Assembly (NCBI RefSeq): GCF_048403405.1
Contig: NZ_CP183129.1
DNA from: Escherichia coli
GTDB lineage: Bacteria > Pseudomonadota > Gammaproteobacteria > Enterobacterales > Enterobacteriaceae
Direction: 5' to 3' (one strand)
Length of the DNA stretch: 64,000 nucleotides
Part shown: in pieces, positions 15,600 to 36,651 of the stretch
How the letters are laid out: the number at the start of each line of letters is the position of its first letter
Position numbering within the stretch: position 1 is the stretch's first letter
Position numbers and translations under genes: made by a program
Notes under the pieces: generated by a model
What the model was told of the DNA's origin: nothing
Seen by the model: only the letters and a program-made list of their open reading frames with translations
The model's database searches: none

Positions 15600-15710
15600 T
15601 AAAAAGTATTCAGAATCAGGCCGGAGTGTTTAACACTCCGTAAACACGGTCGTACATCCAGCCGGTAGCCTGGTTCCTTGCATTGAGTGATGTACGGAGT
15701 TTATAGAGCA

Positions 15711-20158: not shown

Positions 20159-20494
20159 ATGCCAAAGATTGTTATTTTGCCTCATCAGGATCTCTGCCCT
20201 GATGGCGCTGTTCTGGAAGCGAATAGTGGTGAAACCATTCTCGACGTTGCGCTGCGTAACGGTATCGAGATTGAACACGCCTGTGAAAAATCCTGTGCTT
20301 GCACCACCTGCCACTGCATCGTTCGCGAAGGTTTTGACTCGCTGCCGGAAAGCTCAGAGCAGGAAGACGACATGCTGGACAAAGCCTGGGGACTGGAGCC
20401 GGAAAGCCGTTTAAGCTGCCAGGCGCGCGTTACCGACGAAGATTTAGTGGTCGAAATCCCGCGTTACACTATCAACCATGCGCGTGAGCATTAA
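20159..20494 (+). CDS. fdx: [2Fe-2S] ferredoxin
   Basis: 111 aa with CxxxxxCxxC...C pattern. Confidence 0.93.
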
Positions 20495-20505
20495 CAGAGG
20501 TTAGT

Positions 20506-20706
20506 ATGGGACTTAAGTGGACCGATAGCCGCGAAATTGGCGAAGCACTGTACGATGCGTATCCCGATCTTGATCCGAAAACGGTTCGATTCACCGATAT
20601 GCATCAGTGGATTTGCGATCTGGAAGATTTCGACGACGACCCGCAGGCATCTAACGAAAAAATCCTCGAAGCGATTTTGTTAGTCTGGCTTGACGAAGCC
20701 GAGTGA
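20506..20706 (+). CDS. iscX: Fe-S assembly protein IscX
   Basis: 66-aa acidic protein, last gene of isc operon. Confidence 0.9.
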
Positions 20707-20719
20707 TTTCCCCGTCATG

Positions 20720-20880
20720 CTTCACGCCGCAGATGCGTTGGCTGCGCTCGTTCACCCCAGTCACATAGTTATCTATGCTCCTGGGGCTTCACTCACTTGC
20801 CGCGTGATTCGGCCTTTTGGCCTCACCCCTCCGGGGCCAGCGCAAGCGCTGTTCAAAACGCAATGCGTTTTGTCCTGCAA
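20720..20880. repeat. ERIC/IRU-like intergenic repeat
   Basis: cgctcgttcaccccagtcacatagttatctatgctcctggggcttcac resembles the ERIC core (CCCCAGTCAC...GCTCCTGGGG inverted repeat); boundaries approximate. Confidence 0.55.
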
Positions 20881-20950
20881 CGCGAATCATTTAGCGGAAA
20901 AATCCTGGGGCTGCCAACTGGCGGCCCTTTTACAAAGAAGGATAACTAAA

Positions 20951-22234
20951 ATGACAGAAGCGATGAAGATTACCCTCTCTACCCAACCTGCCGACGCGCG
21001 CTGGGGAGAAAAAGCGACTTACAGCATTAATAATGATGGCATTACCCTGCATTTGAACGGGGCAGACGATCTGGGGCTGATCCAGCGTGCGGCGCGCAAG
21101 ATTGACGGTCTGGGCATCAAGCATGTTCAGTTAAGCGGTGAAGGCTGGGATGCGGATCGCTGCTGGGCATTCTGGCAAGGTTACAAAGCCCCGAAAGGCA
21201 CGCGTAAAGTGGAGTGGCCGGATCTGGACGATGCCCAGCGCCAGGAACTGGATAACCGCCTGATGATCATCGACTGGGTGCGTGACACCATCAACGCACC
21301 GGCGGAAGAACTGGGGCCATCGCAACTGGCACAGCGTGCTGTTGATCTGATCAGCAATGTCGCGGGCGATCGTGTGACTTACCGGATCACCAAAGGCGAA
21401 GATCTGCGTGATCAAGGTTATATGGGGCTGCACACGGTCGGACGCGGTTCAGAACGTTCTCCGGTATTGCTGGCGCTGGATTACAACCCAACTGGCGATA
21501 AAGAAGCGCCAGTGTACGCGTGCCTGGTTGGTAAAGGCATCACCTTTGATTCCGGCGGCTACAGCATCAAACAGACCGCATTTATGGACTCGATGAAGTC
21601 GGACATGGGCGGCGCGGCAACGGTTACCGGGGCGCTGGCATTTGCCATTACGCGCGGACTGAACAAGCGCGTGAAGCTGTTCCTCTGCTGTGCGGATAGC
21701 CTGATTAGCGGCAATGCGTTCAAGCTGGGCGATATCATCACCTATCGCAACGGTAAAAAAGTTGAAGTGATGAACACTGATGCCGAAGGGCGTCTGGTGC
21801 TGGCCGATGGCCTGATTGATGCCAGTGCGCAGAAACCGGAACTGATCATTGATGCGGCGACCCTCACCGGGGCGGCGAAAACTGCGCTGGGTAATGATTA
21901 TCACGCGCTGTTCAGTTTTGACGATGCGCTTGCCGGTCGCTTGCTGGCGAGTGCCGCGCAGGAGAATGAACCGTTCTGGCGTCTGCCGCTGGCGGAGTTC
22001 CACCGCAGCCAGCTGCCGTCTAACTTTGCGGAACTGAACAATACCGGAAGCGCGGCGTATCCGGCAGGCGCGAGCACGGCGGCGGGCTTCCTGTCGCATT
22101 TTGTTGAGAACTATCAGCAAGGCTGGCTGCATATCGACTGCTCGGCGACTTACCGTAAAGCGCCGGTTGAACAGTGGTCTGCGGGCGCGACCGGGCTAGG
22201 TGTGCGCACGATTGCTAATCTGTTAACGGCGTAA
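20951..22234 (+). CDS. pepB: Aminopeptidase B (M17 leucyl aminopeptidase family)
   Basis: 427 aa from ATG 20951 (MTEAMKITL...); M17 motif NTDAEGRL; ORF-track start 20690 reads through the ERIC element and is rejected. Confidence 0.93.
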
Positions 22235-22243
22235 ACGTCTTAT

Positions 22244-22318
22244 TTGGCCTACAAAATTGCGAAAATCCAATAGATTGCGAATCCCTTGTAGGCCTGATAA
22301 GCGTAGCGCATCAGGCAC
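22244..22318. repeat. BIME/REP elements
   Basis: tggcctacaaaattgcg ... gtaggcctgataagcgtagcgcatcaggca REP-type palindromes. Confidence 0.7.
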
Positions 22319-22352
22319 TTGTGCCCCGAACGTTGAATGAATTGTGGTTCTT

Positions 22353-23129
22353 ATGTCCGAAACAAAAAACGAACTTGAAGATCTGCTGGAAAAAGCAGCA
22401 ACCGAACCGGCGCACCGCCCGGCCTTTTTCCGTACGCTACTGGAATCCACCGTCTGGGTGCCGGGTACGGCGGCGCAGGGCGAGGCTGTGGTTGAAGATA
22501 GCGCGCTTGATTTACAGCACTGGGAAAAAGAAGACGGCACCAGCGTCATTCCTTTTTTTACCTCGTTAGAAGCACTTCAACAGGCGGTTGAAGACGAACA
22601 GGCATTTGTCGTAATGCCCGTTCGCACATTGTTTGAGATGACCCTTGGCGAAACGCTCTTCCTTAATGCCAAACTGCCGACCGGTAAAGAATTTATGCCG
22701 CGTGAAATCAGTTTGTTGATTGGTGAAGAAGGAAATCCGCTGAGCAGCCAGGAAGTACTGGAGGGCGGTGAATCGCTGATATTATCGGAAGTCGCAGAGC
22801 CACCAGCACAAATGATTGATTCACTCACCACCTTATTTAAAACTATTAAGCCGGTGAAGCGTGCTTTTATTTGTTCAATTAAAGAGAACGAAGAGACACA
22901 GCCTAATTTACTTATTGGCATTGAAGCCGATGGTGATATCGAAGAAATTATTCAGGCGGCGGGAAGTGTAGCGACCGATACATTACCTGGCGATGAACCC
23001 ATCGATATTTGTCAGGTGAAAAAAGGGGAAAAAGGAATTAGCCACTTTATTACCGAACATATTGCGCCATTCTATGAACGTCGCTGGGGTGGCTTTTTGC
23101 GTGACTTTAAACAGAACCGGATAATCTAA
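22353..23129 (+). CDS. sseB: SseB family protein (enhancer of serine sensitivity)
   Basis: 258 aa from ATG 22353; synteny pepB-sseB. Confidence 0.88.
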   Translation: MSETKNELEDLLEKAATEPAHRPAFFRTLLESTVWVPGTAAQGEAVVEDSALDLQHWEKEDGTSVIPFFTSLEALQQAVEDEQAFVVMPVRTLFEMTLGETLFLNAKLPTGKEFMPREISLLIGEEGNPLSSQEVLEGGESLILSEVAEPPAQMIDSLTTLFKTIKPVKRAFICSIKENEETQPNLLIGIEADGDIEEIIQAAGSVATDTLPGDEPIDICQVKKGEKGISHFITEHIAPFYERRWGGFLRDFKQNRII

Positions 23130-23132
23130 AAT

Positions 23133-23160
23133 ATGCCGCCCCAAAGGGCGGCATTCGGGC
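23133..23160 (-). terminator. Rho-independent terminator (minus-strand U-tract; hairpin may also serve sseB)
   Basis: atgccgccc-caaa-gggcggcat hairpin; on minus strand followed by ATTTT. Confidence 0.6.
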
Positions 23161-23298
23161 TTACTTGCTGCTCTGAAGTTTGTTAACCACCAGTAAATTG
23201 TTACCGGAGAGACTCCGGTTATTATTTACCTCGGTTAACAGCGCACCAGAAACAATAAGTACGATACAAAAGCACCGTATCTTCATTGTGCGGTCCAT
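23161..23298 (-). CDS. Small hydrophobic protein (45 aa from ATG 23298, or 41 aa from ATG 23286), putative membrane toxin
   Basis: MDRTMKIRCFCIVLIVSGALLTEVNNNRSLSGNNLLVVNKLQSSK; first ATG sits in loop of hairpin tgcggtc/gaccgca (23289-23310); stop abuts terminator. Confidence 0.45.
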   Translation of the reverse strand: MDRTMKIRCFCIVLIVSGALLTEVNNNRSLSGNNLLVVNKLQSSK

Positions 23299-23507
23299 GC
23301 GAAGACCGCATCACGACAGCACCACTGGCGATATTGCCGCGATAGCAAGCGCTGAGACGCGCTTGCCCTAACGGTCGCGGAACATCCTTTCCTTGAGCCA
23401 GCGCCCGCTTGCGAGACGGCGGAAAGGGCCGGTGTCGATAATACGCTAAATAAACAATGATTACTCTCTTTCGCTTGACAAAAAGAGAGTTACTGGCGAG
23501 TATTGTG

Positions 23508-23608
23508 TCCGCTGAGACGCGCTTGCATTACTACGGTAATACAATCTGCTGGAAAGGCCGCGAACCAAACCAGCAACAAATAACCGCCTGATTTTGGCGG
23601 TTTTTTGT
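23508..23608 (+). ncRNA. sRNA candidate (TimR-like antitoxin sRNA), copy 1
   Basis: TTGACA at 23475-23480 with conserved gcgagtattg downstream; strong terminator aaccgcc...ggcggtt + TTTTTT at 23582-23606; 5' region gctgagacgcgcttgc is the complement of 23351-23366 in the minus-strand transcript. Confidence 0.5.
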
Positions 23609-23784
23609 TGCTTAAAGAAAGTGAATTTACATGTTTAAGTAATATCTTTTACCGGTTAGTATTTTTAATATTGAGCGGGATTTGTTTATATTTGTCTGAA
23701 TTCGGACTGATAAGCCAAATGAATTCAAAATCTATCCTTTTTTATCTACTTGACATCGTTGATGCATAAAGCGAGTATTGAGTA

Positions 23785-35422: not shown

Positions 35423-36541
35423 ATGCATAACCAGGCTCCAATTCAACGTAGAAAATCAACACGTATTTACGTTGGGAATGTGCCGATTGGCGATGGTGCT
35501 CCCATCGCCGTACAGTCCATGACCAATACGCGTACGACAGACGTCGAAGCAACGGTCAATCAAATCAAGGCGTTGGAACGTGTTGGCGCTGATATCGTCC
35601 GTGTCTCAGTACCGACGATGGACGCGGCAGAAGCGTTCAAACTCATCAAACAGCAGGTTAACGTGCCGCTGGTGGCTGACATCCACTTCGACTATCGCAT
35701 TGCGCTGAAAGTAGCGGAATACGGCGTCGATTGTCTGCGTATTAACCCTGGCAATATCGGTAATGAAGAGCGTATTCGCATGGTGGTTGACTGTGCGCGC
35801 GATAAAAACATTCCGATCCGTATTGGCGTTAACGCCGGATCGCTGGAAAAAGATCTGCAAGAAAAGTATGGCGAACCGACGCCGCAGGCGTTGCTGGAAT
35901 CCGCCATGCGTCATGTTGATCATCTCGATCGCTTGAACTTCGATCAGTTCAAAGTCAGCGTGAAAGCGTCAGACGTCTTCCTCGCTGTTGAGTCTTATCG
36001 TTTGCTGGCAAAACAGATCGATCAGCCGCTGCATCTGGGTATCACAGAAGCCGGTGGTGCGCGCAGCGGGGCGGTTAAATCCGCCATTGGTTTAGGTCTG
36101 CTGCTGTCTGAAGGCATTGGCGACACGCTGCGCGTATCGCTGGCGGCCGATCCGGTTGAAGAGATCAAAGTCGGTTTCGATATTTTGAAATCGCTACGTA
36201 TCCGTTCGCGCGGGATCAACTTCATTGCCTGCCCGACCTGTTCGCGTCAGGAGTTTGATGTTATCGGTACGGTTAACGCGTTGGAGCAACGCCTGGAAGA
36301 TATCATCACTCCAATGGACGTTTCGATTATCGGCTGCGTGGTGAATGGCCCAGGTGAGGCGCTGGTTTCTACACTCGGCGTCACCGGCGGTAACAAGAAA
36401 AGCGGCCTCTATGAAGATGGCGTGCGCAAAGACCGTCTGGACAACAACGATATGATCGACCAGTTGGAAGCACGCATTCGTGCGAAAGCCAGTCAGCTGG
36501 ACGAAGCGCGTCGAATTGACGTTCAGCAGGTTGAAAAATAA
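35423..36541 (+). CDS. ispG: 4-hydroxy-3-methylbut-2-en-1-yl diphosphate synthase
   Basis: 372 aa; C-terminal Cys cluster CPTCSR...GCVVNGPGE. Confidence 0.95.
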
Positions 36542-36651
36542 TAACGTGATGGGAAGCGCCTCGCTTCCCGTGTATGATTGACCCCGCATGGCTCCCGAAA
36601 CATTGAGGGAAGCATTGAGGGTTCATTTTTATATTCAGAAAGAGAATAAAC

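Follow-up and report, generated by a model that had tools for sequence, protein, structure and literature searches.

A long-form ERIC element between iscX and pepB of Escherichia coli and the spurious pepB reading frame that crosses it

Background

Where does the aminopeptidase PepB begin in this strain of Escherichia coli, and what is the DNA that separates its gene from iscX? The question is raised by one intergenic spacer of the window, the 64-kb stretch of E. coli DNA analysed here, where the list of open reading frames contains a 514-aa frame that runs from a TTG start at 20690 to 22234 and crosses the spacer in the pepB frame. A first-pass annotation, made from the sequence alone, had placed an ERIC-type repeat at 20720–20880 within a gap of about 245 bp, had called the long frame misleading, and had taken 20951 as the true start of a 427-aa PepB. 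It named a poor full-length alignment to the ERIC consensus as a possible refutation, and a comparison of strains with and without the element as a check. Here, the repeat was delimited and compared across complete E. coli genomes and other Enterobacterales, and the alternatives for the reading frame, for a nested insert, and for a possible effect on the isc transcript were weighed.

Results and discussion

The iscX-pepB spacer

The genes on either side of the spacer, with the start signals that matter for PepB, are the following.

20506–20706, plus strand: iscX coding sequence, 66 aa (open reading frame list; RefSeq iscX at the homologous position in the 100%-identical genome and in K-12)
20951–22234, plus strand: pepB coding sequence, 427 aa (open reading frame list; RefSeq aminopeptidase PepB)
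20938–20942, plus strand: pepB Shine-Dalgarno sequence AAGGA, 8 nt upstream of the ATG and invariant in every allele
20690–20950, plus strand: spurious 5′ extension of pepB, 87 codons through the ERIC, from a TTG within iscX

The region of the window around the spacer is 100% identical to E. coli TUM14771 and 99.6% identical to strain 042. The iscX stop codon is the TGA at 20704–20706 and the pepB ATG stands at 20951, which gives a spacer of 244 bp by gene ends, in agreement with the estimate of about 245 bp made at first pass. Of these 244 bases, 194 belong to an ERIC element, and the other 50 bp hold the pepB ribosome-binding site and, before it, a hairpin followed by a T-run.

The repeat is a complete ERIC element in its long form

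The element and its parts, in order along the plus strand, are as follows.

20707–20900, plus strand: complete ERIC (IRU/RU-1), long variant, made up of 127 bp of ERIC and a 67-bp nested insert (full-length alignments)
20707–20754, plus strand: ERIC left arm, uninterrupted, whose terminus TTTCCCCG pairs with the right terminus (alignments, RNA fold)
20755–20786, no strand assigned: ERIC central inverted repeat CCCCAGTCAC ATAGTTATCTAT GCTCCTGGGG (motif search, primer sites)
20787–20805, plus strand: ERIC right arm, proximal part CTTCACTCACTTGCCGCGT (alignments)
20806–20872, plus strand: 67-bp module of four hairpins, nested at site B in the right arm of the ERIC (absent from the K-12 allele; RNA fold, covariation, Rfam)
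20873–20900, plus strand: ERIC right arm, distal part with the 3′ terminus TCCTGCAACGCGAATCATTTAGCGGAAA (alignments; pairs with the left terminus in RNA folds)

A single ERIC, in a long form, occupies 20707–20900, beginning at the base right after the iscX TGA; ERIC is a miniature inverted-repeat element of enterobacteria with a unit of 127 bp. Aligned with the published 127-nt E. coli consensus, the element matched over the full length at 105 of 127 positions (82.7%), without gaps save for a single 67-bp insertion, against 66 ± 4 for shuffled sequences and 70 for the reverse complement; the comparison that had been named as a possible refutation came out in favor of a full-length element. The consensus used was taken from Table 1a of Delihas 2007 (PMC2759123), which gives the Wilson & Sharp 2006 sequence in reverse complement; this is the RU-1 orientation of Delihas, and 20707–20900 has it too. 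Four typical copies (preT-yeiS, pgk-fbaA, yajO-dxs, and ybhI-ybhJ) served to build an empirical consensus of 127 bp, which was matched at 99 of 127 positions. In this empirical consensus, primer ERIC2 (in reverse complement) and then primer ERIC1R follow one another without a gap, both exact, and the two sites also lie head to head in the window copy, ERIC2 at 20749–20770 and ERIC1R at 20771–20792, each with 19 of 22 bases matching (3 mismatches). The sequences of these ERIC-PCR primers were confirmed in 233 papers.

The inverted-repeat core on which the first-pass annotation had relied, CCCCAGTCAC...GCTCCTGGGG, is present at 20755–20786, and this is the one occurrence of the motif CCCCAGTCAC-N12-GCTCCTGGGG in the 64-kb window, even when 3 mismatches are allowed; 100 shuffles gave 0 matches. 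The extent assigned to the element was partly right, in that an ERIC does lie at 20720–20880, and partly wrong, in that the ends had been clipped by 13 and 20 bases from the true limits of 20707 and 20900. These boundaries, the composite structure of 127 + 67 bp, and the conserved hairpin with its T-run before pepB were absent from that annotation.

Compared to consensus ERIC, the window copy is a diverged subtype (83% identity) that carries the loop ATAGTTATCTAT instead of TTACTTATGTAA and the termini TTTCC/GGAAA where the consensus has TATAC/GTATA; the copy between yjbE and yjbF belongs to the same subtype. The window copy is like other ERICs in its 127-bp unit, its central inverted repeat with both primer sites, its paired termini, and its long RNA hairpin, as well as in its intergenic position between co-oriented genes, membership of a family with some 13 or more copies in each genome, polymorphic presence among strains, and stop-free frames. 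It differs in its interruption by the 67-bp module and in having no visible TA duplication. The K-12 spacer element (134 bp), used as a query, matched 59,500 places in 5,425 of the 5,426 complete E. coli genomes (80–83% identity over 86–98% of the K-12 query; median, 13 per genome), and five other ERIC loci (yjbE-yjbF, preT-yeiS, pgk-fbaA, yajO-dxs, and ybhI-ybhJ) all lie between co-oriented genes. At the iscX-pepB locus itself, the K-12 reference annotation has no repeat feature.

Assignment of the spacer repeat to the REP/BIME family was rejected, as the GC-rich REP units of about 35 bp are unlike ERIC in sequence. What the two families share is a small size, the capacity to form hairpins, and an intergenic position at 3′ ends of E. 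coli genes, as with the Delihas RU-3 downstream of pepB. A REP pair is found in the window on the other side of pepB, at about 22226–22325.

The 514-aa frame is a by-product of the repeat

The long frame follows from the presence of the ERIC. In the present orientation, two frames of the ERIC are free of stop codons and the insert happens to be open as well, so that a 514-aa frame results as a by-product; stop codons are absent from two of the three forward frames over the full 244 bp of the spacer. Since 67 equals 3 × 22 + 1, the pepB frame, which lies in one ERIC frame before the insert, continues in the other open frame after it. This is consistent with past work, in which ERIC in the same orientation carries open frames and fusions between ERIC and open reading frames exist in other genes (Delihas 2007, PMC2759123, PMC2229807).

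That precedent (PMC2759123), together with a frame that is open from 20690, is what speaks for a PepB of truly 514 aa in this strain, with an N-terminus encoded by the ERIC as in the gene fusions of the Delihas type. We regard this as next to impossible. Translation would have to start at a TTG inside iscX without a Shine-Dalgarno sequence, whereas AAGGA stands 8 nt before the ATG at 20951, and the extension would have to run across a strong hairpin and its T-run. It is absent or frame-shifted in most strains and missing or different in 92%, whereas the PepB sequence is conserved from the ATG onward. For the identical sequence, RefSeq gives the 427-aa protein (ATG at 20951, stop at 22234), as it does for K-12, where pepB (b2523) is 1284 nt long. 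The 514-aa pepB frame is therefore an artefact and the real PepB start is 20951, as the first-pass annotation had held on both counts, with the TTG at 20690 and the stop-free ERIC frames as the source of the longer call.

Three spacer alleles in E. coli

The spacer was surveyed in 5,426 complete E. coli genomes by means of the same flanking sequence. Spans of 558, 677, and 744 bp were found, corresponding to three alleles that are cleanly nested in alignment.

Empty allele: 58-bp spacer, about 2,137 genomes (~39%), e.g., E2348/69
Plain ERIC allele: 177-bp spacer with the ERIC and then the hairpin, about 2,864 genomes (~53%), including K-12, O157:H7, and O104:H4
Long ERIC allele: 244-bp spacer with the insert at 20806–20872, 424–436 genomes (~8%), including the window, 042, and O145:H28 RM12581

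The comparison of strains with and without the element, proposed at first pass, could thus be made within the species. In the empty allele, the iscX stop codon is followed by 6 nt and then by a hairpin, GGGCTGCC-TGGG-GGTAGCCC, and a T-run. CFT073 and ST648 also appear to be without ERIC at this spacer, judging from a genome-wide search for ERIC copies. In a Citrobacter genome, the spacer measures about 55 bp and carries this hairpin as GGGCTGCC-TCT-GGCGGCCC-GTTT, and the empty site is on that account probably the ancestral one; comparison of these sequences suggests that the ancestral spacer was probably 55–58 bp long and without ERIC.

The hairpin itself has a counterpart in the window, downstream of the ERIC.

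20907–20931, plus strand: conserved GC-rich hairpin GGGGCTGCC-AACT-GGCGGCCCT followed by TTTT (RNA folds; allele comparison)

It has a 9-bp stem and a 4-nt loop, was formed in every predicted fold of the long and short forms, and is kept in all three E. coli alleles and in Citrobacter. The T-run after it reads TTTT and then ACAA, below the criterion of at least 5 T in 8, and a terminator scan of 20400–21100 on both strands returned 0 terminator-like sites. With four T and a negative scan, the hairpin is called only terminator-like; it looks like a weak terminator or a 3′-end stabilizer older than the ERIC insertion.

Taken in order, the alleles would be explained by entry of an ERIC between the stop codon and the pre-existing hairpin in an ancestor of part of E. 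coli, after which the 67-bp module would have been gained or lost within an otherwise unchanged ERIC, giving spacers of 58, 177, and 244 bp. A TA target-site duplication flanks ERIC (PMC2229807, Table 1), and none is recognizable at the window element, where the order is TGA, element, AATCCT; the left flank in K-12 is TAA. The duplication is unrecognizable because the few bases that flank the element are not the same in the different alleles, and the empty allele (TGA-ATGAAC-hairpin) cannot be converted to the filled one by a simple TA duplication. The insertion event cannot be rebuilt, since the termini (TTTCCCC...GGAAA) have diverged from TATAC...GTATA.

The nested 67-bp module

The insert that distinguishes the long allele folds into four hairpins, at approximately 20804–20826, 20827–20836, 20838–20851, and 20854–20872. 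Within E. coli, the full module is found at the iscX-pepB locus only; about 578 genomes of the ST131 type have a diverged copy upstream of uhpA, in an ERIC remnant and at the same internal position. Long variants of ERIC, extended by about 70 bp at particular internal sites, were reportedly described by Hulton et al. in 1991, by Sharp & Leach in 1996, and by Wilson & Sharp in 2006. The insert studied here is like those of these long variants in its size (67 bp, and 67–75 nt in 53 others) and in its fixed internal position.

These 53 others were found by scanning one genome per species with a pattern that is blind to the sequence of the insert (the ERIC core, 65–95 nt, and TCCTGCA). Among the 56 loci returned, 53 were true long ERICs, distributed over at least 20 Enterobacterales genera, and the other three were normal ERICs with a chance downstream match. 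The inserts are collinear homologues of one another and occupy two sites in the right arm, site A just after GGGGAT (22 loci) and site B just before TCCTGCA (the window and 31 others). Only one of the other locus sequences, Citrobacter L039, contains iscX and pepB, and its long ERIC lies elsewhere, so that the iscX-pepB insertion has no cross-species orthologue among the long-ERIC loci found.

Covariation was examined in 30 distinct site-B module sequences. Under the four-hairpin structure, 88% of cells were paired, compared to 27–50% when the partners were slid by 1–3 columns. Both sides had changed in 13 of 24 pairs, and compensatory cells numbered 64 against 14 ± 4 in shuffles; one pair switches cleanly, being C-G in 22 sequences and U-A in 8. 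This strong structural covariation argues that the module is under selection and may not be simply junk. Neither of two comparisons pointed to a functional strand: G·U and A·C cells in the module (8 vs 12) gave no signal as to the strand of selection, and the orientation of modules relative to neighboring open reading frames was mixed, in a test based on crude stop-to-stop frames that picked spurious ones for the window.

A covariance model built from the site-B alignment was searched over 522 kb of sequence and found about 19 more module copies, in ERIC left arms and on the same strand as the right-arm copies, so that some ERICs have two modules. At all three sites, the module ends in ...TTTG directly before TC. 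A weak match to the model in Dickeya (L025, 6287–6365) has no recognizable ERIC around it.

The module has no terminal inverted repeats and no target duplication, and it has hairpins at both ends, one orientation, and a short fixed target. These features recall, by analogy, elements that are moved as single-stranded DNA, whether derived from IS200/IS605 or REP-like. One could see the module as a separate element of about 70 nt, directional and with its structure under selection, rather than as a passive insertion in ERIC, a tentative proposal that we consider rather doubtful; alternatively, it could be a functional RNA domain carried by ERIC.

Gain or loss of the module

Apart from the 67 bp, the allele of K-12 and that of the window hardly differ, so that they are one gain or loss of the module apart, and the presence of alleles with and without it at one locus within E. 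coli means that this gain or loss is recent enough to be studied. Zo is said to have argued in 2011 for a reductive evolution of ERIC. Applied to this locus, the long allele would be the original ERIC form and the 127-bp form of K-12 would have arisen by loss of the module. We hold this to be quite possible, though short of probable. One indel in either direction is enough to account for the near-identity of the alleles, and the window module differs from that of Salmonella diarizonae at only 3 loop positions, which suggests an old module type; a reductive divergence of ERIC is also what the title of Zo 2011 proposes, as it is cited in PMC10969869. A deletion, however, would have had to restore exactly the short junction GCCGC-CT-TCCTGCA, which is the family-wide consensus. 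The occurrence of the module at three sites, in one orientation, and always ending TTTG/TC looks instead like targeted insertion, and the long allele is the rarest of the three, at about 8%.

The Rfam small RNA match

In Rfam, the module region matched RF02902 (AaHKsRNA22, Aggregatibacter sRNA 22) at 20808–20880 on the minus strand, with 45.3 bits against a gathering score of 39.8, and the match covers positions 1–101 of the 101 positions of the model. The Salmonella and Serratia modules also scored above this threshold, and most other modules scored below it. The order of the four hairpins and the conserved linkers are the same in the model and in the window module, and the model has a 24-nt segment that the window module does not have. 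The hosts also differ, Aggregatibacter being a member of the Pasteurellaceae and the window host one of the Enterobacteriaceae, and the window sequence is a repeat component inside an ERIC, not a stand-alone gene. Two other Rfam families, one for a Vibrio antisense RNA and one for a Shigella sRNA, matched the ERIC core below threshold.

Read literally, the match would make the 67-bp insert a true small RNA gene on the minus strand, a homologue of AaHKsRNA22 that is antisense to the iscX-pepB transcript. Its score above the gathering threshold, the full model length, the strand, and the strong covariation in the four hairpins all fit such a gene, which we nevertheless judge very improbable. The module occurs at three fixed ERIC sites in at least 20 genera, as a repeat does and a single-locus gene does not; it lies in both orientations relative to neighboring open reading frames; and it is absent from 92% of E. 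coli genomes. Its hairpins are palindromic and gave the null result for strand noted above. No promoter or terminator was found on either strand in the scan of 20400–21100, and the source paper of AaHKsRNA22 (Oogai et al., PMC5909427) mentions neither AaHKsRNA22 nor repeats. Because the same module is repeated inside ERICs, and is also called in Salmonella and Serratia, RF02902 here detects the repeat module, and the match is not to be annotated as a small RNA gene. Through RF02902, the spread of the module apparently reaches the Pasteurellaceae.

Transcription, folding, and possible effect on the isc transcript

A scan of 20400–21100 for sigma-70-like promoters found none on either strand. 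In E. coli iscR mutants, yfhJ (iscX), pepB, and sseB are derepressed together with isc, according to Giel et al. as cited in PMC4055776, and yfhJ(iscX)-pepB-sseB is likewise derepressed with isc in Yersinia iscR mutants (PMC4055776). Because the ERIC precedes the hairpin and T-run, and pepB shares the regulation of isc, the element probably belongs to the 3′ end of the isc-hsc-fdx-iscX mRNA and to any transcript that reads through into pepB. A hairpin that is at best a weak or leaky terminator fits this co-regulation (PMC4055776).

If transcribed, the element would fold as a long interrupted hairpin. The predicted RNA fold of the long form has −92.1 kcal/mol (z = −3.9) and that of the K-12 form −61.6 kcal/mol (z = −4.2), and in either form the terminus UUUCC(C/G)C is paired with GCGGAAA. 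In the predicted fold of the long form, the termini are paired, the core hairpin is intact, and the insert forms four small hairpins in a multiloop. Two stretches of complementarity were set aside as candidates for longer-range pairing, one between the ERIC core loop (20766–20773) and the pepB initiation region (20941–20948), the other between the ERIC left arm (20737–20745) and the downstream hairpin (20910–20918); both are at about the chance level for 350 nt and neither is used in the minimum free energy folds.

In Yersinia, ERICs beside stop codons lower the level of the upstream transcript (De Gregorio 2005, in the passages that report it in PMC2229807, PMC3184786, and PMC10969869), and the mechanism proposed in those same passages is that ribosomes unmask an RNase E site located in the 3′ terminal repeat. 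The window copy is like those ERICs in lying at the 3′ end of a gene, right after its stop codon, in being probably co-transcribed, and in its predicted RNA hairpin. The remark of the first-pass annotation that such elements are transcribed with operon 3′ ends and can alter the stability of isc mRNA agrees with this Yersinia literature (PMC2229807, PMC10969869), and for the present copy such an effect would suit its position. The species and the locus are different, the right arm of the window copy is altered by the module, and the putative RNase E motif is not conserved in it.

By analogy, the ERIC could be an active post-transcriptional regulator of isc: ribosomes ending translation of iscX would melt the base of the ERIC hairpin, an RNase E site would be unmasked, and the isc message would decay while pepB was spared. 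The element does start at the base right after the TGA, the ybhI-ybhJ copy has the same orientation and also adjoins a stop codon, a long RNA hairpin is predicted, and the isc mRNA is known for differential decay, with the iscRS stability element at 15600–15709; the model is outlined in PMC2229807, PMC3184786, and PMC10969869. Even so, we consider active regulation unlikely. About 39% of E. coli genomes are without the element and about 53% have a different form, so any effect is dispensable, and the right-arm consensus GA/AUU is GAAUC in the window copy. Given that about 39% of strains have no ERIC at this site, the likeliest effect would be none, or a modest change in 3′-end decay or read-through. 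Our best estimate is that this ERIC copy is a tolerated relic, neutral or weakly modulating, and not a dedicated regulator.

Conclusions

We are highly confident in the joint explanation that a long-form ERIC was inserted in the iscX-pepB spacer, that it most likely persists as a tolerated relic of selfish DNA, and that the 514-aa frame is its by-product. As such, the locus is ordinary: the repeat family, its type of location, and the type of reading-frame artefact are all known. For annotation, this means that choosing the longest frame makes pepB 87 codons too long in this strain type and that the spacer should be labelled as a repeat. The nested module is the only lead with some potential for novelty, being highly structured, with fixed insertion sites, and present in several bacterial families. 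The effect of ERIC on the stability of mRNA 3′ ends has so far been addressed in Yersinia only, and the three natural alleles right after the last gene of the isc/hsc Fe-S operon are a ready-made test of what ERIC and its module may do to 3′-end stability and read-through in E. coli.

Nested module: insertion sites and Rfam matches

Across ERIC loci L011-L066 of the one-genome-per-species scan, the four-hairpin module of ~70 nt occupied three fixed sites, one in the left arm and two (sites A and B) in the right arm, always in the same orientation and with a constant 3′ junction falling between ...TTTG and TC. Two modules were present in some of these ERICs, bringing the element to about 265-270 bp.

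Examples of four-hairpin modules within ERIC elements
L011 5801-5890 and 5935-6016
L013 8245-8329 and 8357-8445
L041 3393-3474 and 3519-3608

The Rfam family RF02902 (AaHKsRNA22, "Aggregatibacter sRNA 22") matched ERIC-nested modules above its gathering threshold in E. coli, Salmonella and Serratia, and thus seems to describe a repeat module rather than a single sRNA gene. The matches of V_AS5 (Vibrio) and CssrA (Shigella) were sub-threshold and mapped to the core and left arm of ERIC.

RF02902 matches on ERIC-nested modules (Rfam)
window 20808-20880, minus strand
L063 392-464
L037 1303-1393

Modules and ERICs in other settings

The covariance model built from the site-B module alignment gave a weak match (26 bits) in Dickeya undicola (L025 6287-6365) with the architecture of the module, and no recognizable ERIC arms surrounded it; this may be a free-standing module copy. 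An ERIC remnant upstream of uhpA in the ST131 strain 5506 (L004 333-465), carried by about 578 genomes, no longer has its central inverted repeat, but its left arm and right end persist, together with a diverged copy of the nested module.

ERIC elements were also present in two records with non-enterobacterial labels, Chryseobacterium sp. 18061 (L059), whose element is a typical site-B long form, and a Rheinheimera MAG (L026). The name of the L059 record ("18061 ... Ancestor") is patterned like that of the Citrobacter record L039 ("18056 ... Ancestor"). Contamination or mis-binning seems the likely source of the ERICs in these records.

Surroundings of pepB

The ERIC core loop TAGTTATC (window 20766-20773) is a perfect complement of 8 nt at 20941-20948, between the pepB Shine-Dalgarno sequence and the ATG, and the left arm at 20737-20745 is complementary at 8 of 9 positions to 20910-20918, in the 5′ half of the hairpin downstream. 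Complementarity of this extent is about what chance would give in the region, and the predicted folds use neither pairing.

A REP/BIME-type pair in the pepB-sseB spacer (window 22226-22325) matches the "RU-3" that Delihas described at the pepB 3′ side in O157:H7. Its left REP-like arm contains the pepB stop codon (22232-22234) and the ERIC lies on the other side of the gene, so that pepB is flanked by two unrelated repeat families.

Gathering-level Rfam matches elsewhere in the window
15600-15709, iscRS stability element
23128-23432, minus strand, ryfA
23564-23741, minus strand, IS128 RNA
36541-36632, sroE

ERIC copy number and alleles in E. coli

NZ_CP116409.1 matches the iscX-pepB spacer over its last 78 nt only (window 20873-20950, 100%) and may represent a fourth allele, disrupted or truncated. 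Within the E. coli genome collection, 44 ERIC places were plasmid-borne. Detectable places per genome numbered 3-6 in CFT073-, ST648- and ST131-type genomes and 10-18 in K-12, O157 and O111 types, indicating that the detectable ERIC copy number in E. coli is strongly lineage-dependent.
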